A stretch of 64,000 bases of DNA. Origin: an uncultured archaeon. GTDB taxonomy: Archaea > Iainarchaeota > Iainarchaeia > Iainarchaeales > DTGL01. Positions 11,901 through 33,406 of the stretch are shown piece after piece. Both the position numbers and the translations under genes were made by a program. The notes beneath the pieces are model-generated. The model saw nothing but the letters and a program-made list of their open reading frames with translations, was not told the DNA's origin and did no database searches. Within the stretch, counting starts at the first letter, position 1. The number at the start of each line of letters is the position of its first letter. The stretch is taken from contig CAZKED010000001.1 of the NCBI GenBank assembly GCA_964551725.1, positions 42,119 to 106,118 on the forward strand, written 5' to 3'.

Positions 11901-14900
11901 CAAGCAACGGGGCATATTACTGCAGGTTAAGCAATGACGGAACAAGCTGGGCGGGCTGGCAGGACTACAATGGAGCGGACAAAAACTATCCCTGGACGCT
12001 CACAGCGGGAGACGGAACAAAAACGGTTTACGTTGCCTGCAAAAACAATGCGGGACTTGAAGCAAGCAATTCAGAAAACGTGGTACTCGACACAACCGCG
12101 CCGGACGGCGTGAGCATTGCAATAAACGACGGAAACCAGTTCACTACAAGCAGGGACATAACAATTGACGTTAACGCACTGAACGCAAAAACATGCGAGT
12201 ACAGCGTTGACGGAACAACCTGGGACACGGTGACAGACTGCAACACCGAAAACTTCAACACGCCGAACGACCTGCCGGCAGGAGACGGATTGAAAACGGT
12301 GTGGTTAAAGGCAACGGATGCCGTGGGAAACTTCACAACCGCAAGCGCTACAATAACACTGGACACTACAGCGCCTGACACAGCGCCAACGGCAACCGCA
12401 ACAGAGAGCGGCAACCAGATTGTTGTAACATGGACAGCCGGCTCTGACGCAACAAGCGGCGTTGACTATTACAACCTTTACAGGAAAACAAGCGACGGAG
12501 TCGCAAAAACGGACACATTCGTGGCAGGCGGACTGAAAGGGCAGTCATATGTTGACTCGCCGGGAGTCAGCGGAAACTTCTGGTATGCCCTGACTGCGGT
12601 GGACTACGCGGGAAACGAGTCGGCAATCGGCACGGATTATGAAGCAGCGGTCGACTTCAATGCGCCGACGGGAACAGTAATAGTAATAAACGACGGGAAC
12701 GATTACACTAGGAGCAGGAACGTCACAATTGACACCAACGCTTCGGGCGCAGACATCTGCGAATATTCAACAGACGGATGGGCAACCGTGGTAGCAATAA
12801 CCTGTGATTCAGTGAACACCGCGGTAACGCTGCCCGACGGCGAGGGAGTGAAGACTGTATCCTTCAAGGCAACCGATGCGAATGCAAACGTGACGAATGC
12901 CGCGGACACAATAATCTACGATGCTACTGCACCAAACACCGAGCCGGTTGCAACCGCAGCATTATTGAACAACACTATAAGGCTCAACTGGACTGCTGCG
13001 GCAGACGCACTGAGCGGAATAAAGGAATACAGGGTTTACAGGAACAGGGGCGCAGCGCCAACACTGCACTCCGATTACATGCTTGTCGGCGGCGTTACAG
13101 GGCTTGTTTACACGGACCAGCCCACTTCAACAGGCACGTATTACTATAAGATAGTCGCAGTGGACAATTCGGACAACAACTCGGACGGAAGCAATACGGT
13201 GAACCAAGCGGTTGACTTTAACGCTCCAGTCGGAGTGAGCATTACAATAAACGACGGAAACCAGTACATTACCGACAGGACAAAAGCAACAATTGACGTT
13301 AACGCATTGGGAGCGGACAACTGCCATTACAGTACCGACGGAGGAGCAACGGAAACACCAATAGCGTGCACCGCTGCTGATACAGCGATAACGCTGCCTG
13401 CGGGAGACGGATTGAAGACAGTAATATTCTACGCAAGGGACTCAAACAACAACGCGACAACGGCAACGGACACAATAAAGCTTGATTCAACAAACCCGGC
13501 GAACGTTACAGGAACGCTTGCAGTTGTTTCAGGACAGCAGATAAAGGTTACATGGAACCAGGGAACGGACGCCACAAGCGGCGTTGACTACTACAAGATT
13601 TACAGGGATACCACAAGCGGGTTCGCTATTGCAGCCAACAAATATCTAGGGGAAACAAAGAACGTGTATTACTGGGACGCGCCGGGAAGCGGAACATACT
13701 ACTACAAGGTCACTGCAGTTGACTACGCCGGAAATGAAGGCACCACAACCGATCAGAATCACGCTGAACTCGACAAGACAGCACCCCAGACATCATTGCT
13801 CAGCATAAACGGGGGAGCATTGTACACTAATTCCGTAAACGTAACGCTGGCTTTGTTCAGTTCGGACAACAATGCTGTAGAACACTGCTGGGCAAGCAAT
13901 GATGGCAATACGTGGACAAGCATTGGAACCGTGGCAAGCTATGCCTGGGCTCTAAGTGCAGGCAATGGAGTAAAGTCAGTGTTCTACGTTTGCGAGGACT
14001 ATTCCGATAACAACTCTGCATTGAGCACCAAAACAATAATGCTTGACGCAACCGCGCCGAGCACCCCGGTTGCAGTGTGGCCGCTGGCTGCCGCGGTGTC
14101 AGGAGAAACATTCATGTGGGACTGGAACGCGTCAGTGGATGCCAATGTACCGGACGGGAACAGCGGAGTGCACCACTATTACGTGCAGTTGACAAGGAAC
14201 GGGACATTCCTGCAGGACGAAAACGTTTACGACACGCACTTGACGCTTGTGGGACGCACTCCCGGAGTTTACGTGCTGACAGTTGCCGGCGTGGACAACG
14301 CAGGAAACCAGTCGGGAACGCTGACGTTCTCCAACGTAACGGTTGATTTGACAATTCCAAGCGCTGCACCCACCAACCCGTTGCTCAATACGGGAGAGAG
14401 ATTCAAGTGGACAAACAGCACAAGCGTTGACTTCAACTTTACTGCAACGGACGACACGGCTGTTTCAGCATGCCTGATAACACCCTACAAGAACAAAGTA
14501 GCACAGACAGCGGTGGCAGTTGTTCCGGTAGGAGGAGTGTGCGGTTACACTTTAACCAGCCTGTCAAGCGGGGATTCAGCATATGCTACAATTGACGTTA
14601 ACGACAGCGTGGGCAACTGGAGCGGCAGCACAGTGAACACAGCAACCTACATTGTTGACACCACAGCGCCTGGAGTCGCAATAATCTCCCCGACATCAAG
14701 CTCAATACTCAGCGACACAACTCCAACGGTTAGATTCCACGCTTGGGACAGCTACGAGGAAAGCGACGTGAACACGGACTCGTTCGTGATTGACACCAAC
14801 GGAGTGACAAGGGTTGTTACAATAACGTGCGACAACAACGCTCCCAACAGCTGGGACTGCAACTTTGATGTATCGCCGGCATTCGCTGACCCGAGCACGG

Positions 14901-15409
14901 ACCAGAATCTTGAAGTAACAGTGTACGACAGGGCAGGAAACAGTTCCACTGCAACAGTAACGGACCTGAACTTTGACTCAAGCGATTACATAACAGTGGT
15001 AGATGTCAACGCGCACAAGTCAAGGGGAACAAATGCCAATACCTATGCAACTGGATGGCAGTGGGACTTCAACATCATTCTCGGAACAGCTTCGGGCAAC
15101 GACAAGAACAAGATAAGGTTCAAGCTGGCAAACTTCACTACTAGTTCAAACTATGCTGGGCTGAAAACGCTCGCGGTTGACGGAAACGCGAGAATGGTCT
15201 ACGACGCCAACGTCGGCGGAGCACAGTCTACGCAGACGTACAACATACAGACAGACTACAACGCTCAGAGAACAGTATATGCACTTTGGGACCACAACCC
15301 GAATACCGCGGGAATAGACGCAAACTTCTACATACAGGTGAAAATCCCAAGCCCCATGGCTTCGGGAACCTACAGGTCAACCTACGGCATAAGGTCGTAT
15401 AGCAGCTAA
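5987..15409 (+). CDS. Giant secreted surface protein (3140 aa) with Cys-pair modules, Ig-like and fibronectin-III-like repeats. Candidate adhesin or surface-layer component.
   Basis: A single unbroken ORF. A GGAGG ribosome-binding site lies 9 nt upstream. The N-terminal signal/anchor is LLLFAVLFTSLLLAIGTASA|TF. The N-terminal half repeats a module of roughly 170 aa ([IV]Y-S-D..C....DYNQYF....Y.[LK]V....C plus a VPDGN...DLS.G...NVA.VSG.H domain) about seven times. The C-terminal half alternates LDTTAP/NAP-bounded roughly 100-aa domains with FN3-like domains (LNWTA...YYYK.TAVD). There is no C-terminal TM. Confidence 0.8.
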   Translation: MNCKGAEKNSKNALTNFKGERSPPGFSQTKRLLLFAVLFTSLLLAIGTASATFRVRGDFPDTGLNYRVEAYDTAQANMCDGTPDNPGVDVNYFSSVYAAGDSSYDDDDDYDETSGSDLGGATLVYFYLCGPGGNAAAKVVEFTKVVNDGDDLEIDIGYVNGGGNTHNNLTGDYVFVCSAYGGYLLSSVNKQPTDGEGYTQYFYIDKNSVGTDADNPIDTAYVFFDNDTTNPCTWDDSKMAGRAIDLNASTPDNFGVYATYEPDQLSSGDTHMVLRDANIAVYNSSGKNVGLAHVGSFADGDGTLVDYNMYFDNPASGNLTIVLTPDGTPVSTAHKTNVYNVDRTIFSGGDYDFVVDVNEATGISTALNKVRVNMSKDTDAVYYQTVPTTSGATKVYDLFIDNNGTGWDDIQYMIGDVNEFIAKRNLSSETDRPIDVARVYGETDANLESGDDMIEIYSDSNCADANILNSQIEYPTETAGGNDYNQFFDVNGKATFYMKIKMRDGANDYNTCGNAFTLTSQEANQDITVDVTGKVPDGNISVIAVDIDQDGTDDANTVNVHSGVYHVFSVTDATLDENVIFYNGPYANDTVELTRIEDLSTAGTKTVNVAMVSGSTHTILNDGDAEDIITIHSDGACTTLLSSKNENPLTARTPDYNQYYESNGDINYYIKVNARRNATDYVSCIRLAGSGNGAVDNINIDQAIDGNAPVDVHRVGIDWTTANTINDVNSDVVGTGFLAFTPSASAGAEANIRFFDASGKLLLSRQKDLSTGGKQDINVANVGGDAHTVLEQGSSTIAVYSGFDNTTGALSTLVSSETVNPADAGGADYNQYFEYSGIDQNYFLKVTVVKNGVSYDTNGNVFMVDNTHFTGTTFIDHTDMTIDLTVDKDGNVTSDIHNVGIDYNQDGVMEAFAQVHGGQYHLVAQPDADGVDVNFYDSGRNSVFGTKRAALTAGNVKINVSKVSGELPSGFEGDNAYLQFDTNTCTINVYGDFNAVAATLTGTPDYTLYYDANGTDYNVVFCDDDTAVAKTELYVPFTSDSNGSVSRIISAGKVSGEAHAGLEGANGRVRIFSDSSCTAGNEISTHIAPTTDGTNADYNIFFYSHIGAGTYYLQADRASTFATCQSFDLDANGGTMPLNIDVEVEGEVPTGVGKIRTDVNSAFTADISANQYYIYAGKGDASDIVYFEDGGDTVLYRTTQDMSGNVASLDIGRIDGNLHANISTDDNVQVYNDAHCVTLRSSEDVNVDTANSNVYSRYFYSDNAGNIFLKVREGNYRECISVEEGDQKATIKNYDLNFLVYGNLGGDVNVIKLDLAQDGTDEIDANIDETATPNTYKIYFDGKDGNATFDINFYNVGTKRLQLAGKDATSDLNVHVGRVAGEMHANASAGANDAVTVYVTSDCETTLVSSQTVNATAAAGVDYSQYFEGDDTGTYYVQLAKDGKARTCSSGITLSNQENTSVDFNYEITGIIPNRASLATKDINAIKVANYIGRAVQHDYNMYVEGEGLTATETIAFYDDNAATATLLLTRTKDLSSGNTIDVNVAYVSGPTHAILTATDDINVCNMVPARTTTAPGYFGNCDVPGFKVSSEDSTNANDFNVYFEYDGNSTYFLEIVDTNVSTDYNSYHKIKNATKGAILYVPLDGVFNGKVTEEYDTSIGIADANVELRTGADGTDWNAYTFTVSDGNYAAFGNTLAGEQDFRFSKAGYITRDWSTNAGQMKDQQLSATLDTNLPSGVYVTVVDSGGQPITDANVALLSDVTTTPHTVLTGCVKPSGRCQRDSNNYAGGVYTFSGFTLPDDIVIKVSKPGYETVLVPDYNGGTAVYHTVTSSSQWAPTITFTNVAPGAVSLRTPLDNTYESTTTPTLKWFDLNVDEINYKVQVDDDFNFGSMAVNTYTGGGNIVAYTVPAATLANGSTYYWRVRAYDGVSDGDWSDIRSFTIDGTAPAAPTIGINTNEVYVNTVSITVTVTSNGAYYCRLSNDGTSWAGWQDYNGADKNYPWTLTAGDGTKTVYVACKNNAGLEASNSENVVLDTTAPDGVSIAINDGNQFTTSRDITIDVNALNAKTCEYSVDGTTWDTVTDCNTENFNTPNDLPAGDGLKTVWLKATDAVGNFTTASATITLDTTAPDTAPTATATESGNQIVVTWTAGSDATSGVDYYNLYRKTSDGVAKTDTFVAGGLKGQSYVDSPGVSGNFWYALTAVDYAGNESAIGTDYEAAVDFNAPTGTVIVINDGNDYTRSRNVTIDTNASGADICEYSTDGWATVVAITCDSVNTAVTLPDGEGVKTVSFKATDANANVTNAADTIIYDATAPNTEPVATAALLNNTIRLNWTAAADALSGIKEYRVYRNRGAAPTLHSDYMLVGGVTGLVYTDQPTSTGTYYYKIVAVDNSDNNSDGSNTVNQAVDFNAPVGVSITINDGNQYITDRTKATIDVNALGADNCHYSTDGGATETPIACTAADTAITLPAGDGLKTVIFYARDSNNNATTATDTIKLDSTNPANVTGTLAVVSGQQIKVTWNQGTDATSGVDYYKIYRDTTSGFAIAANKYLGETKNVYYWDAPGSGTYYYKVTAVDYAGNEGTTTDQNHAELDKTAPQTSLLSINGGALYTNSVNVTLALFSSDNNAVEHCWASNDGNTWTSIGTVASYAWALSAGNGVKSVFYVCEDYSDNNSALSTKTIMLDATAPSTPVAVWPLAAAVSGETFMWDWNASVDANVPDGNSGVHHYYVQLTRNGTFLQDENVYDTHLTLVGRTPGVYVLTVAGVDNAGNQSGTLTFSNVTVDLTIPSAAPTNPLLNTGERFKWTNSTSVDFNFTATDDTAVSACLITPYKNKVAQTAVAVVPVGGVCGYTLTSLSSGDSAYATIDVNDSVGNWSGSTVNTATYIVDTTAPGVAIISPTSSSILSDTTPTVRFHAWDSYEESDVNTDSFVIDTNGVTRVVTITCDNNAPNSWDCNFDVSPAFADPSTDQNLEVTVYDRAGNSSTATVTDLNFDSSDYITVVDVNAHKSRGTNANTYATGWQWDFNIILGTASGNDKNKIRFKLANFTTSSNYAGLKTLAVDGNARMVYDANVGGAQSTQTYNIQTDYNAQRTVYALWDHNPNTAGIDANFYIQVKIPSPMASGTYRSTYGIRSYSS
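7250..10420 (+). repeat. About seven divergent tandem copies of a two-domain protein module of roughly 170 aa (DYNQYF Cys-pair domain plus VPDGN/DLS domain) inside the 3140-aa gene
   Basis: DYNQ[FY][FY]-type motifs recur near 7434, 7948, 8467, 9000, 9272, 9750 and 10250. The repeat is at the protein level (about 30% identity) and is not a DNA-identical repeat. Confidence 0.55.
11470..14700 (+). repeat. Alternating Ig-like (INDGN.Y...R..TIDVNA.GA..CEYS.DG) and FN3-like domain repeats inside the 3140-aa gene
   Basis: At least four copies of the (L/F)(D/N)(T)TAP...INDGNQ[FY]T.SR..TID.NA...C.YS.DG...LP.GDGLKTV block, interleaved with W..TA..D..SG...Y.VYR...Y.K.TAVD blocks. Confidence 0.55.
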
Positions 15410-15431: not shown

Positions 15432-17075
15432 ATGAATAAACTCAGGGCTTCGGCCCTTTTATTTTTTATTTTAATTCTTGGAATAATGTTCATCAACGCA
15501 GCGGAAATAACAGGCACTATTGGCCCTGACGAAAACACGCAGAGCGGCTTTACCGGAGATAGCGGACCGGAAGGGGAAAATTTACTTACAAACGGCACTG
15601 CCTGCGATACAAACTCGCAGTGCAATTCCGGGCACTGTGCTTCGGACTACGATGGAGTGGGAAAATGGTGTGCTGCAGTGAATTACTGCGTGCACAACGG
15701 CACAATCACTTATTCCAACGGGAGTACGCTTTGCTCTAATGCAAGCACGCAGCAGACATGCACTAACGGAACGTGGATTGCGACAATCTGCACCGGAAGC
15801 TGCACAGGAGGAAAATGCGTTGCGGCCACCCCCACACCGACTCCTTCTGCGCCTCCAAGCGGGGGACAGCAACAGGGACCCGGTGGAGGAGCAGCGCCGG
15901 GGGCATCGCCGAGCCCCAGCCCGAGCGCAACCGCCACTCCGTCGCCCACTCCAACGCCGGAAGAGGAAACCGTGCTCGAGACCTCGAAAACGGGAACCGT
16001 GACCGCGGGGGACGTTGACAAGGTCTTGGATGAAGCCGGGGTAACCGATCCCGAGGAGAAGAAAAAGGCGCAGGTTGCAACAGGGCTGGAATACAAAAAA
16101 GAAATGAAGGTTGTGAAGAAAACAGACCCTGAAACAGGCGAGGTAACCTACGAATCGCAGTTCACCATTACGGTCAGGAACCCGACGGACAAAAAACTCA
16201 CCAACTTCTGCGTAATTCAGAGAATTCCCCCCGAAACAGGGGCAACAGCCGAAACATTCAGTTCCCCTTACGAGTATTCAATACTCTCCGAGGAACCACT
16301 GATAGTGCAGTGGTGCATAGGAGAACTCGGACCGCATGAATCCGTGAAAATAAAGTTCACAATAATGGAGCAGTTGACAGAGGAGGAATTCGACCTGTTT
16401 TCCGCCATAGGAACAGGCATAGAGGAAGAAGTGATAGTTGTAGGCAAGGGAAACGTGAAAGTCACGCTTTATGACTCGGAAACCGGCGCAGTCCTCGCGG
16501 TGCCGGTGAACGTAAAAATTTTCAGTGAAGACGGAGAGCTTGCGGCGGAAAAAATCGCCGCTCAGGGAAGCGTTGAATTCTTAGCCCTCAGCCCAGGAAA
16601 TTATTGGATTGAAACAGAGAAAACAGAAGAATACGAGGCGGGAGAATCAAGCACTTTTAAAGTGAAAGCGGACGAAACCGCGGAAGTGTCAATAAGCCTA
16701 GAGCCAGTGGAAGAGGTAATAATCCCGCCCGAGGCGGACTTGAGCGGCTTGATGTGGCTTATCATTATAGTGGCGGTGCTCGGTTTGCTGTACTATTTCA
16801 GGAAGCCGATTCTCGGAATGTTCGCGGCAAAGCCGGCTGCAAGGAAGGCGAAGACGCCGCTCGAAGAAGCCGCTGAGGAAGCGGAAAAGGCGGCTCCGGC
16901 AGCGCCTGCAGTAGAAGCCGAAAAACCAGCCAAACCGCCCAAAAAGAAGAAGAAAAAGAAAAGGAAGAAGCGAAAGAAGCGCAAGAAGAAAAAGAAGAAA
17001 AAGCCGAAGAAAGAGGAAAAGCCGGCCGAGCCCGCTCCCGTCATAGGCGGCGAGGGCACGGAATTCGGGGAATGA
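15432..17075 (+). CDS. Secreted Cys-rich type-I membrane protein with a roughly 100-aa polylysine cytoplasmic tail
   Basis: An AAGGAG ribosome-binding site precedes the start. The Sec-type signal is LLFFILILGIMFINA|AE. The Cys-rich N-terminal domain reads CDTNSQCNSGHCA...CTGSCTGGKC. This is followed by a Pro/Thr/Ser linker, a TM (LMWLIIIVAVLGLLYYF), and the tail ...KPPKKKKKKKRKKRKKRKKKKKKKPKKEEK. Confidence 0.7.
   Translation: MNKLRASALLFFILILGIMFINAAEITGTIGPDENTQSGFTGDSGPEGENLLTNGTACDTNSQCNSGHCASDYDGVGKWCAAVNYCVHNGTITYSNGSTLCSNASTQQTCTNGTWIATICTGSCTGGKCVAATPTPTPSAPPSGGQQQGPGGGAAPGASPSPSPSATATPSPTPTPEEETVLETSKTGTVTAGDVDKVLDEAGVTDPEEKKKAQVATGLEYKKEMKVVKKTDPETGEVTYESQFTITVRNPTDKKLTNFCVIQRIPPETGATAETFSSPYEYSILSEEPLIVQWCIGELGPHESVKIKFTIMEQLTEEEFDLFSAIGTGIEEEVIVVGKGNVKVTLYDSETGAVLAVPVNVKIFSEDGELAAEKIAAQGSVEFLALSPGNYWIETEKTEEYEAGESSTFKVKADETAEVSISLEPVEEVIIPPEADLSGLMWLIIIVAVLGLLYYFRKPILGMFAAKPAARKAKTPLEEAAEEAEKAAPAAPAVEAEKPAKPPKKKKKKKRKKRKKRKKKKKKKPKKEEKPAEPAPVIGGEGTEFGE
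16941..17015 (+). repeat. Imperfect AAG/AAA/AGG low-complexity tract encoding the polylysine tail
   Basis: The sequence aaaaagaagaagaaaaagaaaaggaagaagcgaaagaagcgcaagaagaaaaagaagaaaaagccgaagaaagagg was read directly. Confidence 0.6.
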
Positions 17076-17194
17076 GCAAATTCCCTGCTTCTTTTTTTAT
17101 TTTCTGTTTTTTTAAGTAGTTGGCGCTTTGCTGAACTGGCATTAGCGTTAAAAGAATTTTCTTTCCCTATTTTTCCGCTGAGAGAGTTGATTGA

Positions 17195-18988
17195 ATGCGG
17201 TTAAAGATTGAGAGGGAAAAGTGCGATTTATGCGAGTCAGCGCAGTGCATGAATTCGTGCCCGCTTTTTTTGGAAAAGAATGCGCTGAACTGCATCCACT
17301 GTAACCCGGAAGAAGCGGAGTGCAGGAATGCCTGCAGACGGAATGCCTTTTTTGAAATTGCCGAGGGCATTCTTTCAATCGACGAGGAAAAGTGCGATGG
17401 ATGCGGGGAATGCGTTAAAGCCTGCCCCTACAATGCAATTGTGCTGGTGAACGGAAAGGCGAGGAAGTGCAATCTCTGCGCCGAAAACGATTTCCTTGTT
17501 TCCTGCGCGGAGGGATGCGCGCGCGGGGCAATTTCAATCCGCTGGGAGAGGAAGGAAACCAGGGCAGCGGAAAAGGCATTCGGGTGGAGGGTTTTTCCGG
17601 TCAAGGAAAGGAACATGCGGGTTCTGAGGCATGGAAACAATGCGAGGATTGTCAAGTGCAACGGGAAAAAATGGTACTTGCTGGATTCAATGCCCGCGCT
17701 GACAAAGCAGGAAGCCGTGCTCCTCAGGAAAATACTGCGGGAATTCCAGGAAGGCAAATGGGAAAAGGGAAATCTGGAAGAGGCGGTGGAAAGGCATTGT
17801 TCCACGAATTCGATTGAACTGGGCGAGGAGCAGAAGGACTATTTTCTCGGTGTTCTGGGTTCTTCGGTGTACGGCTTCGGGCCTGTTTCCGTGCTCTTGG
17901 AGGACGAGGAACTCGAGGAGATTGCTCTCGCTGGATTGGGAAAATCGAATCCGTTGAGGGCATTCCACCGCGATTTCGGGTGGCTTGACTGCAATGCATA
18001 CTTTTCAAGCGGCAAAGCCGTGAGGAACCTGGTAAATAAAATGATTGGAAAGATGGAGAGACGGCTTTCCACTGCAAACCCGAGGGTGAACGGAATGCTC
18101 TCCGACGGAAGCAGGCTGAATGCAACACTGCCGCCTGTTTCGGTGGGAATGCCTTCTTTTACTATAAGAAAGTTCCACACTCAAAAAATGACTCCACTGG
18201 AGCTTGTGGGCAACAAAACATTCAGCGCGGAATTAATGGCTTTCCTTTGGCTTTCAATGCTCAGCGAGTGCTCCGTTCTCATAGCGGGAAACACGGGAAG
18301 CGGCAAAACAACCACGCTCAATGCCCTGTTTTCTTTTGTTCCAAGGGATGAAAGGATTGTCGTGGTGGAGGAAACCCCTGAAATGCATTTCCCGCACGCG
18401 CACTGCGTGAGGCTTAACACTCTCGAAAGCAGGAACATTAAAATGCAGGACCTCATCGCGGATTCGCTGAGAATGCGCCCGGACAGGATAGTAATAGGCG
18501 AGGTAAGGGAAAGGGGGGAAATAAAGGCGTTCGTTGACACGCTGCTGGCAGGGCAGGGAAAGGGCAGCTATGCGACAATGCACGCCCTGAGCGCAAGGGA
18601 AGCAGTTACAAGAATGAAGGCTTTCGGGGCAAGGGACGATGATTTGAAGGGAGTGGACCTTTTCATCGTGCAGAAAAGGTGGACTGAAACAGACCTGGAA
18701 AGGAACGAGCGGAGGGAAAAGAGGAGAATCACCGAAGTGGCTGAACTCGGGGAAAAAGGCAGGGCAAAGCGCCTTTTTTCACTTGACTTCCGAAGGGACA
18801 GAATAAAGAGGCATTCTTTTGGAAAAAAGCCCGTGGAAAAAATGAAAATCGCCTTCGGGCTTTCAAAGGGGGAAATAGAGGGGAAAATAAAGAAAAGGAC
18901 GCTTGCACTGGAGGAATGGAAATCCGAGAGACTTTGCCTTAAAGAGTTCTTTGAGAGGGCGTGTGCTTTCAGGGAGGATGGAAAATGA
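17195..18988 (+). CDS. FlaI/TadA/VirB11-family secretion ATPase with an N-terminal poly-ferredoxin-like (4x Cys-cluster) domain
   Basis: The N-terminal 110 aa carry CDLCESAQCMNSCP, CIHCNPEEAECRNAC, CDGCGECVKACP (CxxCxxCxxxCP) and CNLCAENDFLVSCAEGC. The ATPase core carries FTIRKF, Walker A LIAGNTGSGKTTTLNAL, Walker B RIVVVEETPE, and His-box RPDRIVIGEVRERGEIKAFVDTLLAGQGKGSYATMHA. Confidence 0.85.
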   Translation: MRLKIEREKCDLCESAQCMNSCPLFLEKNALNCIHCNPEEAECRNACRRNAFFEIAEGILSIDEEKCDGCGECVKACPYNAIVLVNGKARKCNLCAENDFLVSCAEGCARGAISIRWERKETRAAEKAFGWRVFPVKERNMRVLRHGNNARIVKCNGKKWYLLDSMPALTKQEAVLLRKILREFQEGKWEKGNLEEAVERHCSTNSIELGEEQKDYFLGVLGSSVYGFGPVSVLLEDEELEEIALAGLGKSNPLRAFHRDFGWLDCNAYFSSGKAVRNLVNKMIGKMERRLSTANPRVNGMLSDGSRLNATLPPVSVGMPSFTIRKFHTQKMTPLELVGNKTFSAELMAFLWLSMLSECSVLIAGNTGSGKTTTLNALFSFVPRDERIVVVEETPEMHFPHAHCVRLNTLESRNIKMQDLIADSLRMRPDRIVIGEVRERGEIKAFVDTLLAGQGKGSYATMHALSAREAVTRMKAFGARDDDLKGVDLFIVQKRWTETDLERNERREKRRITEVAELGEKGRAKRLFSLDFRRDRIKRHSFGKKPVEKMKIAFGLSKGEIEGKIKKRTLALEEWKSERLCLKEFFERACAFREDGK

Positions 18989-19755
18989 TTCATTTTCCTT
19001 TTTCCGCGGGGAAATTTTTCGGGGGGAAAATGGGACTGCTTCGCGCTGTTCTTGCCTCGCTTTTCCTCTGGTTTCTTTTCTCCCTTGTTTTTCCCGGAAT
19101 TGTAGAAGGAATCCTGTTTTTTCTTTTCTCCCTTTCCGGAATCTGCCTGTTCTCATTTTACGCTGCGGGGAGAGCGCGCAGGAGGCATGCCGAGAGAGTG
19201 AATGGAAGCATTCCCTTCTTTCTCCTGGGGCTCAGGGTAAAGCTTTTGCTTGGGAAAAGCATGGAGGAATGCCTCAGGGAACTGGGTGTTAAAGGAAAGG
19301 GCGCTTTTTATTCGGAGCTCGGGAAAACCGTGAGGGAATTCGAATGCCTGGGCGCGAGCGTTGAGGATGCTTTGCTGCATCTCGCGGAGAGGGTTGATTC
19401 CATTCCACTGAAGCGCGCTGTTTCCTGCATAGTGCAGCTGAGCGAGCAGGGCTTCTCTGCCGGGGAACTTAACTCGCTGGGCATACTTGCAAGGGAACTG
19501 CTCGCCGAGGAAAAGGCGAAAATAAGGGAATTCTCTGGGAAAATCGTTGTTTTTTCCCTTATGTTTGTGGCTGTTTCCGCTGTTTTTCCGGCACTGTTTC
19601 TCGCGTTTGTTGCCGTGGGCTCTCTTTTTCTCGAAATAGGGTTGAGCCCGCTGCAGGCGGTCGTTGTTCCTGTCGTGCTCTTTCCGCTCATTGACCTGGG
19701 GGCAATGCTTTTCATTCGGGAAAAAATTCCTCTCATCGAAGCGGGCGGGGCGTGA
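18985..19755 (+). CDS. T2SS-F-domain membrane protein (TadB-like half-platform)
   Basis: Its ATG overlaps the ATPase stop (ATGA), and an AGGGAGGA ribosome-binding site lies upstream. The topology is N-terminal TM helices, a cytoplasmic helical domain (LGASVEDALLHLAERV...GELNSLGILAREL), then two C-terminal TM helices. Confidence 0.6.
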   Translation: MIHFPFSAGKFFGGKMGLLRAVLASLFLWFLFSLVFPGIVEGILFFLFSLSGICLFSFYAAGRARRRHAERVNGSIPFFLLGLRVKLLLGKSMEECLRELGVKGKGAFYSELGKTVREFECLGASVEDALLHLAERVDSIPLKRAVSCIVQLSEQGFSAGELNSLGILARELLAEEKAKIREFSGKIVVFSLMFVAVSAVFPALFLAFVAVGSLFLEIGLSPLQAVVVPVVLFPLIDLGAMLFIREKIPLIEAGGA

Positions 19756-19760
19756 ATTAA

Positions 19761-20702
19761 ATGAATGCACAGGTTTTTGGAATGGCGTCCGGAATGCTGC
19801 GGGCTTTTCTTTCAGGAAAAAAATACCTGGGACTGGAAAAGGAATTCAGGGAAGAGAGAGGCGAATCACTTCAGAAATTTCTTTCGCGGTGGTTTGCGCG
19901 GGGCGTTGTTTCCGCGCTTGTTTCTTGCGCTGCATTTCTTTTTTTTGAAATGCCTTTTTTATTTTTTGCGCTTGCCGCTGTCCTGCCTGTTGCCCTGCCT
20001 TTAGGCGCGCTTTCCCTGCAATTGTTTCTCTTTGAAAGGGAAAGGGGAAAAAAGGAGGAAGCCGTGCCCGCACTGCTTCTCCAGGCTTCCATTTTTCCAC
20101 CGAAAACGCCTGTATCGAAAATGATGGAATGTTTTGCGCTTGGGGAAAAAAATGCCTTTGGAAAGGAGTTCAAGAAAGCGGTAAGGGAAGTAAAGCGCGG
20201 GGCAAGCGCTGCGGAAGCGCTGGAAGGAATGAAAGCCAGGAACAGGGGAAGGTTTTTCCGCGAGGCAGTTGAAATGCTTTTGCTCGCGGAGGAAACGGGA
20301 ATTGAAATGAATTCTGTGCTGAGGGAGAAAGCGGAGGAAATAATCGAAGTGCAGGCCATTCTGAGAGAGCGTCTCTCGCTTCTTTCAATACAAAAAGCGA
20401 CGCTTTTGCTCGGCGGGGGAGTAATAGTGCCTTTTATTCTAGGTCTCCTGAGCGGGATGGTGCGCTCCTTTGACTTGGGGGAGTTTTCGCAAATGCTTTC
20501 AGGCAGCGTTGCGTGCAGGCAGGAAATGCTTAATGCAGCGGTTTTTGCAAACCAGGTGTTTGTTGTGGAATACGCGCTCGTTTCCTCCCTCTTCCTTTCC
20601 TTTCTGGAGGGAAAGCCCAGGAAAATTTTTCCTTACGCTTTGGTTCTTGTTCCTTTGGGTTTTGTTGTTTTTTCCCTTGCAGCGCGGGCTCCCGTAATCT
20701 GA
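19761..20702 (+). CDS. T2SS-F-domain membrane protein (TadC-like half-platform)
   Basis: The ORF lies 5 nt after the previous gene. It carries AEALEGMKARN..FFREAVEMLLLAEETGIEMNSVLREKAEEI between TM segments, which is typical of the GspF/TadC cytoplasmic domain. Confidence 0.6.
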   Translation: MNAQVFGMASGMLRAFLSGKKYLGLEKEFREERGESLQKFLSRWFARGVVSALVSCAAFLFFEMPFLFFALAAVLPVALPLGALSLQLFLFERERGKKEEAVPALLLQASIFPPKTPVSKMMECFALGEKNAFGKEFKKAVREVKRGASAAEALEGMKARNRGRFFREAVEMLLLAEETGIEMNSVLREKAEEIIEVQAILRERLSLLSIQKATLLLGGGVIVPFILGLLSGMVRSFDLGEFSQMLSGSVACRQEMLNAAVFANQVFVVEYALVSSLFLSFLEGKPRKIFPYALVLVPLGFVVFSLAARAPVI

Positions 20703-20765: not shown

Positions 20766-21560
20766 ATGTGTGCAATTGAATTGTTTGCGCGGAGAGGTGT
20801 TTTTTTGGAAGGAAAAGTGGAATTTGTGGAGCACGGAAAGGTTGACTTGAAGGGTTATACTTTAATAGAGGGCTTTCCCGGGCTGGGCTTGGTCGGAACG
20901 ATTGGAGTGAAATACATTGTGGAGAGGCTCAAGTTCAGGTCTGTCGGGCACATTGAGAGCGATTTCTTTGTTCCCATTATAAGGGTGCACGAAGGCCTGC
21001 CTGTGTATCCCTCGCGCATTTACGTTAACAAGCAGAAGAAGCTCGCGGCGCTTGTGTCCGAGCAGATAATTCCGAGGAATATGACGGCGACCATTGCCAG
21101 AAATGTGGTGGAGTGGGCTGCAAAAAAGGGAATAAAAAAGGTAATTTCAATAGAGGGAATTCGGACAAAGGGCGCAAAGAACGGGGCGGAAATGAAGATT
21201 TACGGGATTGCCTGCAACGAGAAATCCAAGGCGGACCTCAAAAAATTCAAGGTTCCGATTGTAGGGGAGGGAATCACCACAGGCGTTACTTCAATGATTT
21301 TGCTTGAAATGTCGAAGCAGGACAAAATCGAAGCGTACTCTCTGCTGGGGAACGTGAAAATCGCGGCAGACTACAAGGCTGCCGCGGAATGCCTCAAAAA
21401 ACTGGACGAAATTTTGGGGAACCAGTTCAAAATAAACGTGCAGCCGCTGCTCAAGGAAGCAAAGGAAACAGAAAAAGCGCTCCTCTCGCACCTGGGAAAA
21501 TTAAAGCAGACCGAAGCCACGGTTAAAAAGTTCGAGAAAGGCGTGCCCATGTACACCTGA
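20766..21560 (+). CDS. PAC2-family (proteasome assembly chaperone-like, COG1938) protein
   Basis: The 264-aa ORF has the N-terminal LIEGFPGLGLVGTIGVKYIVERL motif that I associate with the PAC2 family. The length fits. The TATA-like ctattttaaat sits close to the ATG, so the transcript may be leaderless. Confidence 0.45.
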   Translation: MCAIELFARRGVFLEGKVEFVEHGKVDLKGYTLIEGFPGLGLVGTIGVKYIVERLKFRSVGHIESDFFVPIIRVHEGLPVYPSRIYVNKQKKLAALVSEQIIPRNMTATIARNVVEWAAKKGIKKVISIEGIRTKGAKNGAEMKIYGIACNEKSKADLKKFKVPIVGEGITTGVTSMILLEMSKQDKIEAYSLLGNVKIAADYKAAAECLKKLDEILGNQFKINVQPLLKEAKETEKALLSHLGKLKQTEATVKKFEKGVPMYT

Positions 21561-21576: not shown

Positions 21577-21984
21577 TCAGATTTCGAGGGAAAGCATTCT
21601 TGCCGCGCTTTCCACTGCGTGCTCGCTGTACTGCTGCAGTCTTTCCCTTGCCTGTTCTTCGGAAACCCGCGGTCCAATCATTCCGCTGAGCACGGGCTTG
21701 TTGTATTGTAAAGCGAGGTCGGACATTTTTCTCGCGGCGTTCTCCGCCACTATTTTGTCGTGCCCTGTGCCGCCCTGCAGTACGACGGCAAGGCATATTA
21801 CTGCTGCAATTTCCTTTTTTTCAAGCATTTTTTTAACCGCGAGGGGCATGTCGAATGCTCCCGGCACGCGGACAACGGGAGCGATTTCAATGCCTAGTTC
21901 TGCGGCTTTTTTCTCAGCGAAAGAGAGCATTTTCTCTGCCATTTCTTTCCTGTAGTCCGCAACAACAACCCCTATTTTTGCCAT
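21577..21984 (-). CDS. ribH: 6,7-dimethyl-8-ribityllumazine synthase
   Basis: The 135-aa ORF carries MAKIGVVVADY...VPGAFDMPLAVKKML...LQGGTGHDKIVAENAARKMSDLALQYNKPV, which closely parallels the archaeal (M. jannaschii-type) RibH as I recall it. Confidence 0.85.
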   Translation of the reverse strand: MAKIGVVVADYRKEMAEKMLSFAEKKAAELGIEIAPVVRVPGAFDMPLAVKKMLEKKEIAAVICLAVVLQGGTGHDKIVAENAARKMSDLALQYNKPVLSGMIGPRVSEEQARERLQQYSEHAVESAARMLSLEI

Positions 21985-21998
21985 TTTACCGCCTTTTT

Positions 21999-22481
21999 TT
22001 ACACTTTAAGCCCTGGGGCGTTCTCCGAGCCCTGCCTCTGCCCTGTTCCGGCTTTTTCGGTGAGGGATTCCGGCTTGAATAGGATGGCTAGAGCGTTCAG
22101 CCCGTGCTTTTCGCAGCGGTCCTTTAAAATTTCCGCAAGTCGGGCATCGTTTTCTGCCTCACTGGAGTGCACAAATACCTTTAAAATGTGATTTCCTGTC
22201 AAAATTTCGACGTTTATGAGGCTCAGCGATGCCTCGTGCGCGCACGTTTCGTCTATTGCCGCATCGCCAACAAAGCCGAATGCGAGTACCAAATCGCATC
22301 CCTTCTCGCGGAAAAGCTTGATGCAGGCGACAGGCAAATCCTTTATTCCGGGAACAGTATAGTGCTGGAATTTTACGCTGTAGCCCTGCTTTTTTATCTC
22401 CTTTTCCATTGCCTTAATCGCTATTCCCGCCATGTCGGCGCGCGCAAACATTGTGTCCGCTATTCCAATTGTTTTCATCAT
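21999..22481 (-). CDS. ribC: Archaeal-type riboflavin synthase
   Basis: The 160-aa ORF carries IGIADTMFARADMAGIAIKAM...TVPGIKDLPVACIKL...CAHEASLSLIN...LFKPESLTEKAGTGQRQG, which matches the archaeal RibC (lumazine-synthase-like riboflavin synthase) family. Confidence 0.85.
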   Translation of the reverse strand: MMKTIGIADTMFARADMAGIAIKAMEKEIKKQGYSVKFQHYTVPGIKDLPVACIKLFREKGCDLVLAFGFVGDAAIDETCAHEASLSLINVEILTGNHILKVFVHSSEAENDARLAEILKDRCEKHGLNALAILFKPESLTEKAGTGQRQGSENAPGLKV

Positions 22482-22867
22482 CCCAGCCTCTGCATTCTGA
22501 CAACGTCGCCGTTTTCCAGGGCGAGCTTCTCTCTGAGGTTTTTTTCCGAAATCACTTCAACAACATTCTCCGGGTGCCTGTTTTTTTCAGGCACAACGAT
22601 TGCGGAATCAAACGAGGCAATCCACACCCTGTAGGCGGTAAGCGGATTGAACCTGCTCCCGCTCCTTTCAAATCCCTCCAGTTCAATCGGCTCTGATTCC
22701 TTCAGGAATTCTTTCATTTTTCCAACGTCCACTTCCAGGTTCAGCGTGCCGGGAAAGGGAAAAAAGCCCAGTTTCTCTCTCACCTCGTGCCTGTACTCGT
22801 GCAGTGAGAGGAAACGCTGTCCTTCGCCGAGACCGGATACCACCCTGCCAGCCAAAAATTCCGCCAT
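22478..22867 (-). CDS. ribK: CTP-dependent archaeal riboflavin kinase
   Basis: The 129-aa ORF carries GRVVSGLGEGQRFLSL.EY...LGFFPFPGTLNLEV...AIVVPEKNRHPENVVEVISEKNLREKLALENGDVV, matching the MJ0056-type RibK. It overlaps ribC by 4 nt. Confidence 0.8.
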   Translation of the reverse strand: MAEFLAGRVVSGLGEGQRFLSLHEYRHEVREKLGFFPFPGTLNLEVDVGKMKEFLKESEPIELEGFERSGSRFNPLTAYRVWIASFDSAIVVPEKNRHPENVVEVISEKNLREKLALENGDVVRMQRLG

Positions 22868-24223: not shown

Positions 24224-27200
24224 CTAATTCTTTTTCCTTACAATCAGGATTCTTCTTCTCACCAAAAGCACTGCTCCAATGAGCAGTGAAAGGAAGAAAA
24301 GCAATTCGAGAGCGTTTTCCGGCAGGGAAGGCAGGTTCCAGAGCCCTGGCTGCTGTGGTCCTGTCTGCACGTTGAGAATGTTGTCGCCTGGCTTCGACAC
24401 CACTTCGCCGTCCTTTCCGACCTGCGTGAGCGACCCGCGGCGGAATGCCTCAATCAGGGGTATCAGCTGACCGTTCTCGGAATACCACATTCCTGTTTCG
24501 GGGTCGTACCAGAACGCTCCGTTTCTTCCCTGCGCCATTGTAAGCGTTTCCGGGGGGTAGGTATTGTAGGTTATCGTGGGAATGCCGTTTTCCGCTGAAA
24601 ACTTGAGGTCGTGGTCGTTTCCTTCGGCATCCTCTATGTGAATTCCGTCGGCTGTCTGCTGAATGCTTTCAATGGGCGCCTCGTATACCTCGCCTGTTTC
24701 CTTGTTTATTATTTTAATGAAATCAATGCATTCGTCGCCGACAAGCTTCGAGTAAATAATGAACCTGCGCGTTGGCGTTTCAAATATCTGGAAGGGCCCC
24801 ATCTCCGTAAGGGACTGGTTGAATTGCTCCACTTTCTCTTCCTTGAGGTCGGAGCCCGGAACAGCAATCGCTTCAATTTCCACAGCCGGCTCAGGGCACT
24901 CTGTTTCGGGATTAACTGTTTCAGCGAGGTGCGTTTTCATTCCTGAAACGTCTTCCTGCGAAATTGCCGCCTGGGCATTCCTCTTGAGCCATATTATCAA
25001 TTCGTTGGTGTAGGGCTTGTAGAGAATGAGACCGTTTTCGAATATTATGGACTGCAAGAGCCCGGCTTCCTTTGTGCTGTTGTTGCTCAGCAGGGTGTTC
25101 CTGTCGGAGTAAATTTCCACTCTCGCTGTTGCGCCTTCAACCATTAGTCTCGGAGCGCCCTCGGCAACAATCCTCTGCTTTTCCTCCCACGCTTTTATGG
25201 TGGGATGCGTTGTGGTGACAATGTTCACAACCTTTCCGAAAGCGCTTGTGAGGTTGCCGCTTTCCTTTCCATAGGAAGTGAATTCCAGTCCCGTTTGGTC
25301 CAGAATGCCCTGCCTTATGCAGTCGAGCACTTCCCGGCTTGTTGCTATGAGTTCCGAATCGGTGCCCATTTTGAAAATGAGCTCTTTTTTTGCGGGCAGT
25401 CCCAGCACCGTGAGTCTTTTGGGGAATTCTTCCGCGGGAATGCTGAGGTTTGTGGATTCAAGCGCGGTGACAATGTTGTTGTCTATTAATGTGGTTTTTT
25501 TCCTGACGCCGTTTTCGTCCACGACATAGTAAACCTTTCCTTCGCCGAAATTTATTTCCAAAAACCTGTTGGAATCCGGGTCGCCGACAACCTTTTTCCC
25601 GCTTGATTTGAACGCGCTCGGGTTGGTTTCGCCCTTGAACCAGAAGGAGTAAAGTCTCTCGGATTCAAGAATGCCTGAGGAAAACTGCTCTGTGTCAATG
25701 CGCGCCTGCACGAGGTCATCGCTCTCAGAGCCCTCAATGAAGTTTTTCACGGTTTCATCCAGTTTTTCCGCGGCCTGCGAGGTGTACGTGTTCTCGTCGG
25801 AGCGGAACAATCCCATAAGCGTGTCAAATCCCTGCTGGGTCATTTCCGCAACTTTTTCAGTGGAAAGCTGTGCAGGTGCTTCCGAGCCCTGCTTTTCCTC
25901 TTCCGCGGGAGCGAAAATGTGCACGTAATAGCCCTCGTCAACGTCCACGCAGTCCTGTATCTGCGGGGCGTAATAGAGCTGCTGGAATGCGGTAGCGAAC
26001 ACAGCACTCCAGCCGAAAATCATGTAGGAAAGGGATTCCCCGAAAGCCATCCAGCCCCCGACAGAGGAGGGATTGCATTCCCTTCCAAACAAATTGCAGG
26101 CAGCGTTCATTATCTTGCCAGGCAGGATGTCCTGCACTTTCTGCCTGCACGAATTGCCTGCGCGCATTTCTTGCACGAGGTCTATTTTTCCCTCTTCCGA
26201 GGAACCCTCCTCTGTTCCCGACAAATTCATGTGCCTTGAGAAGGTTATAATCGTGGAGCCCTTCTTCTTTGCCTTTTCTGACACGGTGTCCTCGAGAACA
26301 TAGGAAGTGGTGCCGCGCATTGCGTAAAAGTTGGGCATGAACGCGAGTATGTTTTCCGCTGACAGATTGATGCCGCATTCCTCGCAGTCCGGTTCGGAGT
26401 TGGAGTAGAACGCCAGGTTTTCGACCCTGTCGCGCACCTCCTCGCTCTTGAAACTTTCATACATGTCGTTCAACGGCTTGAAGTTCGCGAACACGTTCCT
26501 TGCCAAAAACTCCCAGGGCAGGTACTGGAGCATTTTATTGAAGAGGTCGCCTTGGTCGCTGCCCTCGTTGGCGAAAAAGTCAATGAAGGCGTCATTGTAA
26601 AGCTCGTGCTCTCCTGTGTACCATTTGACCTCGCGCCATACGTCCGGCAGCATGTAGCCCGAAGCCCAGTCCTGTCCGCCGCCGCGCTTTGCGAACCAGT
26701 ATGCGTTGGTGTAAGCGCTCCATTTCAACCCGCCTTTTAGGGAAAAGTAGTCTTTGAATAGTTGGTTCTGGCGCTGCACCGCCATGTCCAAAATGCTTGT
26801 GAACCTGCGGCCCATGAAGCCGCGGTGCACCATTGTGTCCACGAGTCTTTCGCTGTTTTTTACGGGGTATTCCGCTGTCATTAACTGCAGCCTTCCGTGG
26901 GTAAGTCTTTTTGCGAATTCTTCGGGCGTCAATTCCATTGCTTTTGCCATTTCCGCGCCGTGCCCTGGCTTTGTTCCTGTTAAAGTGTAGCGCAGTTTTG
27001 GCACTGACCAGTCCTTTATGGGCAGGGCTTCCCCGGAATCGATTGCCACGGACCAGTCCGCGTAATGGGAGAAATGCCTTTCGATGTCGGGCATGCTCAC
27101 CTCGCCCCACTGGGGGGAAGTCGGGCTGACCTTGTAAAGGTTCAGGTTTCTGCCTGTTGTCTCGAATGCGCTCATTCCCGCCCAGTCGCCGTCCCTTGCG

Positions 27201-28745: not shown

Positions 28746-29285
28746 TCACCCGTGATAGAGGTAGAAAATCAACCCCATTGGAATCCAGTTGAACGCGAAC
28801 AGCAACAGAAAGCTGCCTGTTAAAGTGCAGGCAAATACCGCGAGGAAGTTTTTGGCATGCGGGTTCCATTTTTTTTCCTTCAATTTGTCCGCGAGCATCG
28901 AGCCGAGCAGTAAAAACGGGGAGAAGAGAACCGCGACGGCGAATGCAACCATGAGAATTTTGAATACTGCGTAAAACCACAAGCCCGCTGTTTCCAGGGG
29001 CGTGGCATACAGTTGTTCGGGCACTTCGCCCAAATTCCATTCCCCTGAAACAAGCGCGAGAGGGTAAACGTATGCAAGCGCGGTGAGCGCGAGGGAGAAA
29101 ACGAAAAGCGAAATGAACGCTGAAGAGAACCATTTCATTTTGAATTTTTCCGCGAGCCTTTTGCGCAGGAAAGCCGCGGGAAAGACGAGAATGAAAAACG
29201 GGATGGAAAGGACCAGCGAACCCCAGAGCAGCTGCGCAAGGGAAAGTAATAAATTCATGCCAGTGTTAATACTTATGAAGAACAT
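28746..29285 (-). CDS. Polytopic membrane protein (about 5 TM), co-oriented with and 4 nt upstream of the 1505-aa gene
   Basis: The ATG is at 29285 (MFFISINTGMNLL...). A TATA-like gtatatatta lies about 20 nt upstream. Hydrophobic helices run throughout. There is no second-Asp GxGD-type peptidase signature. Confidence 0.55.
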   Translation of the reverse strand: MFFISINTGMNLLLSLAQLLWGSLVLSIPFFILVFPAAFLRKRLAEKFKMKWFSSAFISLFVFSLALTALAYVYPLALVSGEWNLGEVPEQLYATPLETAGLWFYAVFKILMVAFAVAVLFSPFLLLGSMLADKLKEKKWNPHAKNFLAVFACTLTGSFLLLFAFNWIPMGLIFYLYHG

Positions 29286-29362
29286 TCGGCTCAATTAAAT
29301 GTATATATTAACACATTTAAATAACTTAAGGTATTAATTTAGGGGAAGAATTGAGTGGTTTT
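29286..29362. promoter_or_regulatory. Bidirectional AT-rich promoter region (aaatgtatatattaac / catttaaataac / ggtattaattta)
   Basis: The TATA-like elements were read directly between the divergent genes. Confidence 0.35.
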
Positions 29363-33376: not shown

Positions 33377-33406
33377 CAGTTTCACCTCAGCATAAAAAGC
33401 AAAAAC

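Follow-up and report, generated by a model that had tools for sequence, protein, structure and literature searches.

Why should a pilus-type secretion ATPase of an archaeon carry sixteen cysteines at its N-terminus, and what might they contribute to the motor to which they are joined? The question is raised by a gene at positions 17195..18988 of the window (the whole 64-kb stretch of DNA analysed here; this gene and all features given below lie on the forward strand), which starts with ATG, ends with a stop codon at 18986-18988 and encodes a protein of 597 aa that the ORF list together with matches to Pfam T2SSE and Fer4 families identify as an Fe-S/secretion-ATPase fusion. The Cys-rich region and the ATPase are unbroken by any stop, and 16 Cys are found in residues 1-117 as against 7 in the remaining 480 residues. 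Pfam searches with the fusion protein matched T2SSE with an E-value of 4.1e-32 (residues 290-493) and Fer4 with an E-value of 1.6e-9 (residues 61-82), and Fer4_6, Fer4_7, Fer4_2 and Fer4_11 each exceed their gathering scores, the last with 30.3 bits against a cut-off of 26.2 over residues 31-114. Assemblies from JGI, ENA and Logan include 11 independent contigs on which the identical fusion protein is called, which excludes an assembly or gene-calling artefact, and the same start 'MRL' is seen in homologues. The full-length AF2 model has a pLDDT of 90.9 and a pTM of 0.79.

The ATPase portion is, as judged from its sequence and modelled fold, a member of the PilB/GspE/FlaI/VirB11 secretion ATPase superfamily, for which a hexameric assembly and ATPase activity are predicted. 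It comprises an N-terminal extension and NTD (residues 136-333; 17600..18193), delimited by alignment to afGspE (PDB identifier 2oap) and FlaI (PDB identifier 4ihq), a catalytic CTD corresponding to Pfam T2SSE (residues 334-500; 18194..18694) and, according to the secondary structure of the model, a C-terminal β-sheet/helical extension (residues 501-597; 18695..18985) that it has in common with afGspE. The alignment with 2oap extends to query residue 572 (phmmer E-value of 5e-46), and Foldseek could superimpose the two-domain NTD/CTD fold on 2oap over ~500 columns with an E-value of 3.5e-35 and a TMt of 0.73-0.75, and also matched it to FlaI (4ihq) and CpaF. The Walker A motif GNTGSGKTT (residues 365-373; 18287-18313), FTIRKF (residues 321-326), the Asp box VVVEETPE (residues 389-396), the Walker B/Arg region LRMRPDRIVIGEVR and the His box H463 are all present. 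Residues invariant in 65 homologues are G365, T367, S369-T372, E392-E396, R426-R431, E436, R438 and H463, and the superfamily motifs GNTGSGKTT, VVVEETPE, DRIVIGEVR and H463 are likewise invariant in this set. The closest solved structures, those of afGspE (2oap) and FlaI/ArlI (PDB identifiers 4ii7 and 4ihq; TMt up to 0.75), share the NTD, the CTD, the C-terminal extension and the catalytic motifs, but have no Cys-rich N-terminal domain. The protein is not assigned to the archaellum motor FlaI/ArlI (NF058587, 185.4 bits against an equivalog cut-off of 550), and no archaellum families (archaellins, ArlF/G/H/J) were detected near the fusion gene. Secretion ATPases with Cys-ligated metal are known from bacteria, where GspE/EpsE/PilB have a tetracysteine Zn site (PMC5061722); however, those proteins have one such site, located within the C-terminal domain, and a CxxC...CxxC motif of this kind is absent from residues 118-597 of the fusion protein, where the seven Cys are scattered and form no CxxC pairs.

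Residues 1-117 (17195..17545) are predicted to form a four-[4Fe-4S] ferredoxin domain of the HycB/NrfC/WOR5-B type, whose cysteines fall into four groups that provide 16 candidate ligands, all 16 being kept in 90 homologues. Motif I, CDLCESAQCMNSCP (residues 10-23; 17222..17263), was located in the sequence and supplies C10, C13, C18 and C22, the last followed by Pro; C22 is invariant in 65 sequences and the other three are conserved in at least 90% of them. Motif II, CIHCNPEEAECRNAC (residues 33-47; 17291..17335), also read from the sequence, supplies C33 (at least 90% in the same set) and the invariant C36, C43 and C47. Motif III, CDGCGECVKACP (residues 67-78; 17393..17428), the part matched by Pfam Fer4, is a canonical CxxCxxCxxxCP with C67, C70, C73 and the Pro-flanked C77 invariant across the 65 sequences. 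Motif IV, CNLCAENDFLVSCAEGC (residues 92-108; 17468..17518), recognized from the sequence and Fer4_11, follows the pattern K91-C92-x2-C95-x8-C104-x3-C108, of which K91, C92, C95 and C104 are invariant in the 65 sequences and C108 is conserved in at least 90%.

In the model, a double ferredoxin fold spans the whole N-terminal domain, with HycB3/4 of HDCR (PDB identifier 7qv7) and the small subunit of AOR (PDB identifier 8c0z) among its top fold matches. These two, as well as NrfC/PsrB, FdnH and WOR5-B, are four-[4Fe-4S] electron-transfer subunits with the same ~110-residue fold and four Cys groups, and they have the 'KCDLC' group IV motif and a nested ligation in common with the fusion domain. 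They pair with molybdo-/tungstopterin or hydrogenase catalytic subunits, whereas the fusion domain sits covalently on a P-loop motor. A Zn ribbon was rejected as the identity of the domain on fold scores, and an ABCE1-type Fe-S domain was rejected as well (Foldseek rank 33, E-value of 0.09, TMq of 0.24). The arrangement of the cysteines fits nested ligation, in which one motif would contribute its first three Cys to a cluster and the partner motif its last Cys, motif I pairing with IV and motif II with III. Rare variants (P0058, P0065, P0175, P0159 and P0147) drop Cys in exact four-ligand sets: the first three have lost the ligands of the same one cluster, P0159 has lost an internal cluster and P0147 two non-adjacent clusters, with the domain polypeptide still present in the latter two. 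Since these losses match nested ferredoxin ligation, they are indirect evidence of it and argue for real cubanes. The 117-residue domain thus most likely binds four [4Fe-4S] clusters in the HycB/NrfC/FdnH manner, and it is from such patterns that we infer actual cluster binding. The original prediction had read the ORF at 17195-18988 as a poly-ferredoxin-type 4Fe-4S domain fused to a complete FlaI/TadA-like ATPase; every motif that it quoted (the four Cys clusters, FTIRKF, GNTGSGKTT, VVVEETPE and the His box) could be found, the Fer4 and T2SSE matches bear out a real fusion, and the ORF-boundary error and Zn ribbon that it had set against itself give way to one uninterrupted ORF, identical on 11 contigs, and to a predicted four-cluster ferredoxin fold with all 16 Cys kept in orthologues (90 proteins).

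The fusion architecture is seen in ~100 homologues across three DPANN lineages, and the same locus is found in Iainarchaeota, Undinarchaeales and Micrarchaeia. DSSP of the model delineates a linker between the Fe-S domain and the N-terminal region of the ATPase (17546..17599), consisting of a helix (residues 119-129) and a strand with the conserved G130-W131, with G130 invariant and W131 kept in at least 90% of the sequences. Orthologues at the same locus often lack the Fer4 domain and have their N-terminus just ahead of 'LGW', and tblastn found no split ferredoxin gene or remnant upstream of them (E-values above 0.4). Thus, the domain is accessory to the ATPase. A midpoint-rooted NJ tree, which is crude, would place the domain in the ancestor, followed by losses. 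Such repeated loss shows that the domain is dispensable, and leaves a regulatory and a structural role undistinguished. A scan of genome contigs with generic ATPase motifs gave, among the matches listed, only distant bacterial and archaeal ATPases.

The fusion gene is the first of a conserved operon and is followed by a split platform protein. The first half (18985..19755; 256 aa, T2SSF-like) is supported by the gene call at locus L085 and by weak matches to Pfam T2SSF and NCBIfam UpsF, and T2SSF is found at the orthologous position in L081, L083 and L090. The ATPase stop and the ATG of this half share bases (ATGA), an arrangement suggestive of translational coupling. The second half (19782..20702; 306 aa) is a called gene that matches Pfam T2SSF above the cut-off (E-value of 4.5e-9). 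In the intergenic region upstream of the ATPase (17066..17194), a terminator-like hairpin (17066-17087) plus a T-run 3' of the preceding gene gives way to A/T-rich sequence. A separate transcription unit therefore probably begins with the ATPase gene, with a promoter presumably ahead of it. Apart from the two T2SSF halves, the neighbours are PAC2 and riboflavin genes, and the CTP-dependent riboflavin kinase, PAC2 and split transketolase give the window an archaeal context. Five pilin-like ORFs lie 11-15 kb from the operon, adjoining a second ATPase, and none lies within the operon. A prepilin peptidase was not found in the 64-kb window, in which Rfam and tRNA scans also gave no matches.

A similar layout has been described in other archaea. 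A 2026 census of TFF systems in archaea describes, for methanogens and DPANN, a system 1 in which the ATPase occurs together with a platform protein encoded by two genes, and in the Epd system of M. maripaludis the ATPase MMP0040 and the membrane proteins MMP0038/MMP0039 are encoded remote from the pilins. The locus studied here resembles both in that an ATPase gene precedes two T2SSF genes that together encode the platform, apart from pilin genes; it differs in that the described system-1 ATPases have no Fe-S domain, whereas here one is fused, and it is set beside EpdL by its layout. The census itself found no evidence of ATPase fusions. On the strength of the ATPase and split-platform layout, the protein would serve as motor ATPase in a type-IV-filament (pilus) machine of the archaeal 'system 1'/Epd-like kind. 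The organism belongs to the DPANN archaea, probably to Iainarchaeota/Diapherotrites. The original prediction had called it a Tad-like motor, which has to be revised to this Epd-like archaeal machine from a bacterial Tad system, whose ATPase TadA/CpaF was rejected with 176.9 bits against the TIGR03819 cut-off of 373.

Additional N-terminal domains on secretion and other NTPases have precedents. Those of bacterial PilB/MshE/GspE serve signal input or docking, with MshEN binding c-di-GMP and N1 binding GspL, and are comparable in being extra N-terminal domains on a secretion ATPase, but their folds and ligands are unrelated and they have no metal clusters. In ABCE1/Rli1, an N-terminal diferredoxin-like Fe-S domain precedes an ABC ATPase and works as a structural element that moves; a mechanical NTPase that begins with a ferredoxin-like Fe-S domain thus has a precedent. 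However, the ABCE1 domain has two clusters as against four, belongs to a protein of another ATPase class and is only a marginal structural match. In the Sulfolobus Aap pilus, the Fe-S protein AapX is encoded beside the pilus ATPase gene and is required for pilus assembly. As AapX is a separate membrane-anchored protein and its homologues carry an FAD-binding domain, it was set aside as a homologous 'Rosetta stone'; homology to the Fe-S domain of the fusion seems unlikely and the parallel is functional only, although the fusion would be a second, independent hint of Fe-S proteins in archaeal pilus biogenesis.

We favour, with about even confidence, the possibility that the domain is an accessory input module through which redox, O2 or Fe-S status acts on the pilus motor. 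[quoted passage not shown] This regulatory mechanism is one that we infer, and the conserved fusion suggests a coupling between pilus assembly and the redox state of the cell. A redox- or O2-sensitive switch and a structural role were the two alternatives offered in the original prediction, and both stay the leading readings. Several considerations speak against it. Classical Fe-S sensors such as FNR, SoxR, IscR and WhiB have one cluster and not a four-cluster chain, and by analogy a chain of this kind would rather serve electron transfer, as it does in every solved relative. Also, the operon has no conserved redox partner gene across the loci compared, and net charges of the domain between -7 and +9 occur within the family, so that there is no conserved electrostatic docking signature.

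A less probable, though still tenable, alternative is that the clusters only serve to fold a rigid domain for protein-protein contacts and exchange no electrons normally, the contacts perhaps being with cytoplasmic domains of the platform, with some accessory protein or with adjacent subunits in the hexamer. By analogy, such a docking module might be likened to the Fe-S domains of the ABCE1 ATPase and of archaeal RNA polymerase subunit D, but the match to ABCE1 is only the marginal one given above. The losses in P0159 and P0147, where the polypeptide is kept while an internal cluster or two non-adjacent clusters are gone, would break a wire and therefore fit a scaffold, which could survive them. 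The related four-cluster subunits HycB3/4 of HDCR and the AOR small subunit oligomerize into filaments, and it is these filament-forming proteins that are among the top fold matches. Conservation outside the Cys is 0.49 in the Fe-S domain, resembling peripheral regions and not the catalytic core (0.65-0.72). The 2026 census, too, proposes extra N-terminal domains of archaeal TFF ATPases as interaction interfaces. However, no conserved partner gene is evident for such docking, and 16 Cys with four oxygen-labile clusters would be a costly scaffold in reduced DPANN genomes.

Rather improbable, in our estimate, is a role as electron conduit, in which the six domains of the hexamer would form a ring of 24 [4Fe-4S] clusters linking the cytoplasmic ferredoxin pool to a membrane partner, be it the platform, the pilins/filament or another acceptor; a variant, by analogy to nitrogenase Fe-protein-type ATPases and equally improbable, would couple ATP hydrolysis to low-potential electron transfer. 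It draws on the observations that all close structural relatives with solved structures are subunits that form electron-transfer wires and that the full four-cluster chain is kept in ~90 proteins. The cluster lost in P0058, P0065 and P0175 is, as we assume by analogy with FdnH and NarH, a terminal one of the chain, so that a contiguous three-cluster wire would survive in these variants. However, P0159 and P0147 break the chain, and many orthologues at the same locus have no domain. No conserved donor or acceptor enzyme lies nearby, a redox-enzyme catalytic subunit (molybdo-/tungstopterin or hydrogenase) being absent within 10 kb in the window and in L081, L083, L092 and L093. Pilins and platform proteins have, to our knowledge, no redox chemistry. 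A gene-calling or assembly artefact joining ferredoxin and ATPase genes, or a Zn-binding Cys-rich domain, is very improbable and already refuted as far as sequence analysis reaches, given the uninterrupted ORF and its identical product on 11 contigs from independent assemblies, an architecture common to ~100 homologues in three DPANN lineages, the predicted four-cluster fold in place of a Zn ribbon and a correlated loss of Cys across motifs that suits cubane ligation and not one metal site per motif.

The motors of type-IV filaments belong to the most widespread machines of prokaryotes, and nucleotides, c-di-GMP and partner proteins are the inputs known for them. The conserved four-cluster domain would be the first direct link of such a motor to redox or iron-sulfur chemistry; were the domain a conduit, the type-IV-filament motor would itself be redox-active, which is not known of any secretion or pilus system. 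DPANN pili are believed to serve in attaching the cells to hosts and surfaces, and DPANN energy metabolism depends on ferredoxin, so redox-gated assembly would bear on when these ultra-small anaerobes attach. The naturally domain-less orthologues and the cluster-loss variants provide ready controls. The suggestion in the original prediction that the fusion had not been described holds in that no description of an Fe-S/pilus-ATPase fusion was found in the searchable literature, but database pipelines already label both halves in relatives, which are automatically annotated as 'CpaF family ATPase/Fe-S-cluster-containing hydrogenase component 2'.

The ORF predicted at 17195-18988 on the forward strand encodes a protein of 597 residues (the Fe-S ATPase). 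Independent JGI, ENA and Logan assemblies give an identical protein, called on 11 contigs; the ORF boundary, raised earlier as a possible error, is therefore sound, and a sequence check located each motif of the original prediction where it had been placed. Sixteen Cys lie within residues 1-117, against seven in the other 480 residues. The proposed pairing of Fer4 and T2SSE is recovered by Pfam, with T2SSE at residues 290-493 (E=4.1e-32) and Fer4 in the N-terminal region (E=1.6e-9; also Fer4_6, Fer4_7 and Fer4_2), along with the four-cluster family Fer4_11 at residues 31-114 (30.3 bits against a cut-off of 26.2). The best NCBIfam matches of the N-terminus are TtrB, DmsB and FDH-beta type subunits. 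Those of the core are archaellum FlaI (185 bits, cut-off 550) and TadA (177 bits, cut-off 373), scores too far under the cut-offs for assignment to either family. From about residue 100 onwards, the structural model matches complete chains of A. fulgidus GspE (PDB identifier 2oap; E=3.5e-35, TMt 0.73-0.75), followed by FlaI and then CpaF, and the GspE match is also seen at the sequence level. Since complete GspE and FlaI chains could be aligned, the model indicates that the whole archaeal motor ATPase is present and that the Fe-S domain is an addition to it. A conserved helix and a Gly-Trp strand join the two parts, and both elements are also present in orthologues without the Fe-S domain (Fer4-less).

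A database search found 2516 relatives, and roughly 70 of the best 120 contain both Fer4 and T2SSE. We aligned 65 full-length members, whose identity to the query is 37-57%; T2SSE is detected in all 65 and Fer4 in 61, and the catalytic residues of the ATPase are invariant. This alignment also served as the survey of Cys conservation proposed in the original prediction, and each of the 16 Cys columns is invariant or at least 90% conserved. An exhaustive search across 1.84 billion cluster representatives supplied further sequences, and with these added, all 16 Cys are present in 90 proteins. In homologues with an apparent 12-15 Cys, among them P0002, P0012, P0022, P0025 and P0030, the first residue falls within motif I or motif II, apparently because the start was mis-called. 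Majority-residue conservation of the Fe-S domain is 0.56 and falls to 0.49 when the Cys columns are excluded, resembling the peripheral regions (0.43-0.47) and lying under the cores of the NTD and CTD (0.65-0.72).

In the ferredoxin fold, a cluster takes three ligands from one motif (its leading three Cys) and the fourth from the partner motif (its last Cys). Exactly C10, C13, C18 and C108 are missing in the homologues P0058, P0065 and P0175, and exactly C33, C36, C43 and C77 in P0159, the other 12 Cys being kept in each case; P0147 lacks both sets and keeps the remaining eight. If one event removes the three adjacent Cys of a motif, the extra lost Cys would coincide by chance with the predicted distant partner with probabilities of 1/13, 1/13 and 1/45 in the three patterns, or jointly about 1 in 7,600 assuming independent events. 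These sequence patterns support nested ligation, motif I with IV and II with III, and argue against one metal site per motif. The same nested arrangement is that of FdnH and NarH. The domain very probably binds four [4Fe-4S] clusters, and P0186 and P0204, with only two Cys motifs, represent a two-cluster version. A four-cluster ferredoxin fold, its ligands conserved in sets, is covalently fused to the N-terminus of a pilus motor.

Named members of the family are labelled 'Candidatus Diapherotrites/Iainarchaeum' or 'archaeon', and more divergent Fe-S-bearing members occur in Undinarchaeales (P0170 cluster) and Micrarchaeia (P0139); the organisms hosting the fusion are uncultured. The domain, scored as present where a representative aligns from profile position 1-5, is carried by about 22 of the top 150 representatives (50% identity). 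In a neighbor-joining tree built from the ATPase cores, proteins with and without Fer4 are interleaved, and the domain is present on the deepest branches. On long contigs, three Fer4-less proteins occupy the same syntenic slot as the Fe-S ATPase, and no ferredoxin gene or remnant was found upstream of these three. The fusion is perhaps old and the domain repeatedly lost, a conclusion kept tentative because the tree is crude; the Fe-S domain would then be an accessory module. Three further homologues (P0135, P0136 and P0146; 1154-1605 aa) have two to four matched ATPase stretches each, as a result either of tandem fusion of motor ATPases or of an artefact of gene calling or assembly.

The ATPase stop overlaps the start of a 256-aa T2SSF-like platform gene (ATGA, 18985-18988, forward strand), which suggests translational coupling, and a second platform gene (306 aa, T2SSF) follows on the same strand. 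The two relatives' loci L081 and L083 show a similar overlap of 4-17 nt, and the order ATPase, T2SSF, T2SSF is repeated in the distant relatives L081, L083 and L092. A hairpin and T-run separate the ATPase from its upstream gene. The wider synteny, prenyltransferase/DUF192 ... ATPase - platform - PAC2, is kept even in a genome from Micrarchaeia whose platform is encoded by a single gene (569 aa); comparison of 8746-10455 in the locus L093 with 18985-20702 in the window shows that the platform split of 'system 1' varies within an orthologous locus. Archaeal 'system 1' (Epd-like) is defined in a 2026 census of type-IV filaments (TFF) by an ATPase together with a platform encoded by two genes; the census reports this system in methanogens and DPANN, and the Fe-S ATPase locus shares this layout. 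In M. maripaludis, the ATPase and two platform genes are likewise remote from the pilins.

We describe a real, conserved fusion of a HycB/NrfC-type four-cluster domain to an archaeal system-1-like pilus motor, a new kind of N-terminal module on a known machine. The claim that it was undescribed holds for the literature searched, in which no description was found of a secretion, pilus or archaellum ATPase with an Fe-S domain; none is mentioned by Makarova et al. (2016). AapX is the only Fe-S connection to archaeal pili found, a membrane-anchored protein needed for Aap pili whose homologues have a FAD-binding domain, but AapX is a separate protein, whereas here the domain is fused to the motor. 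The CTD of bacterial GspE/EpsE contains one tetracysteine site for Zn, which is absent from the Fe-S ATPase. Both halves of the fusion are already in automated annotation (JGI and UniRef names) and the sequences are not new, but the fusion appears to have been uninterpreted so far. It would surprise a specialist and is directly testable, while its function is one that we infer.

In the secretion ATPase family, the N-terminal extension is a site of regulation and partner docking, as in the c-di-GMP-binding MshEN domain and the GspL-binding N1 domain of GspE, and the Fe-S domain is similarly located. N-terminal domains of archaeal TFF ATPases are subsystem-specific according to the 2026 census. 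The Fe-S domain is thus most likely an input module. In a DPANN cell that is strictly fermentative and depends on ferredoxin, the motor would receive signals of energy, oxygen and iron status through the redox state or integrity of the clusters. A pure scaffold or docking role remains as an alternative: some variants retain the domain though internal clusters are lost, and HycB-like subunits tend to oligomerise. A genuine electron conduit is a further alternative, the structural relatives of the domain all being wires, but partner genes are absent, the domain is frequently lost and chain-breaking variants exist.

Window neighbours of the operon include a split transketolase, a ribulose-phosphate epimerase and PAC2 (proteasome assembly chaperone family; 20766-21560, forward strand); together with the riboflavin genes at 21577-22867, they identify the window as archaeal. 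PAC2 consistently follows the ATPase-platform operon across DPANN phyla (homologous loci L083, L089, L090, L091 and L093), and DUF192 is often upstream. A compact archaeal riboflavin cluster (21577-22867, reverse strand) encodes lumazine synthase, archaeal-type riboflavin synthase and CTP-dependent riboflavin kinase, and in L089 a riboflavin kinase lies beside the orthologous pilus operon. Directly upstream of the operon, on the forward strand, are genes for a 3140-aa secreted repeat protein (5987-15409) and a 547-aa secreted protein (15432-17075) that has a linker of Pro/Ser/Thr, a TM helix at the C-terminus and, on the cytoplasmic side, an unusual tail of about 35 consecutive Lys/Arg; this pair is not conserved upstream in L081 and L083. 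On the reverse strand, a signal-peptide protein of roughly 1500 aa (24224-28741) adjoins a membrane ORF of roughly 180 aa (28746-29294). Neither matches Pfam, and the two, which in distant relatives recur a few kb from the Fe-S ATPase operon (L081 14771-19995; L083 18939 onward), may serve the pilus system as an accessory or adhesin pair.

A second type-IV-filament locus (31405-39459, reverse strand) encodes a 761-aa T2SSE motor ATPase without the Fe-S domain (37171-39459), an 848-aa ORF without a Pfam match (34641-37190) that is possibly a platform protein, and five small ORFs whose N-termini resemble the class-III signal peptides of pilins, for example FFRNEKGQSFSVFKLLISAIVALAILGILL. Beyond it, three tandem giant paralogous ORFs on the forward strand (40294-48624, 2776 aa; 50620-57831, 2403 aa; and from 57897 to the window end, at least 2034 aa) share the N-terminal motif 'MG(V)VDS.KD.YF.LE..YY...D.L'. 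The third runs past the window end, and this accounts for the seeming lack of ORFs at 58-64 kb.
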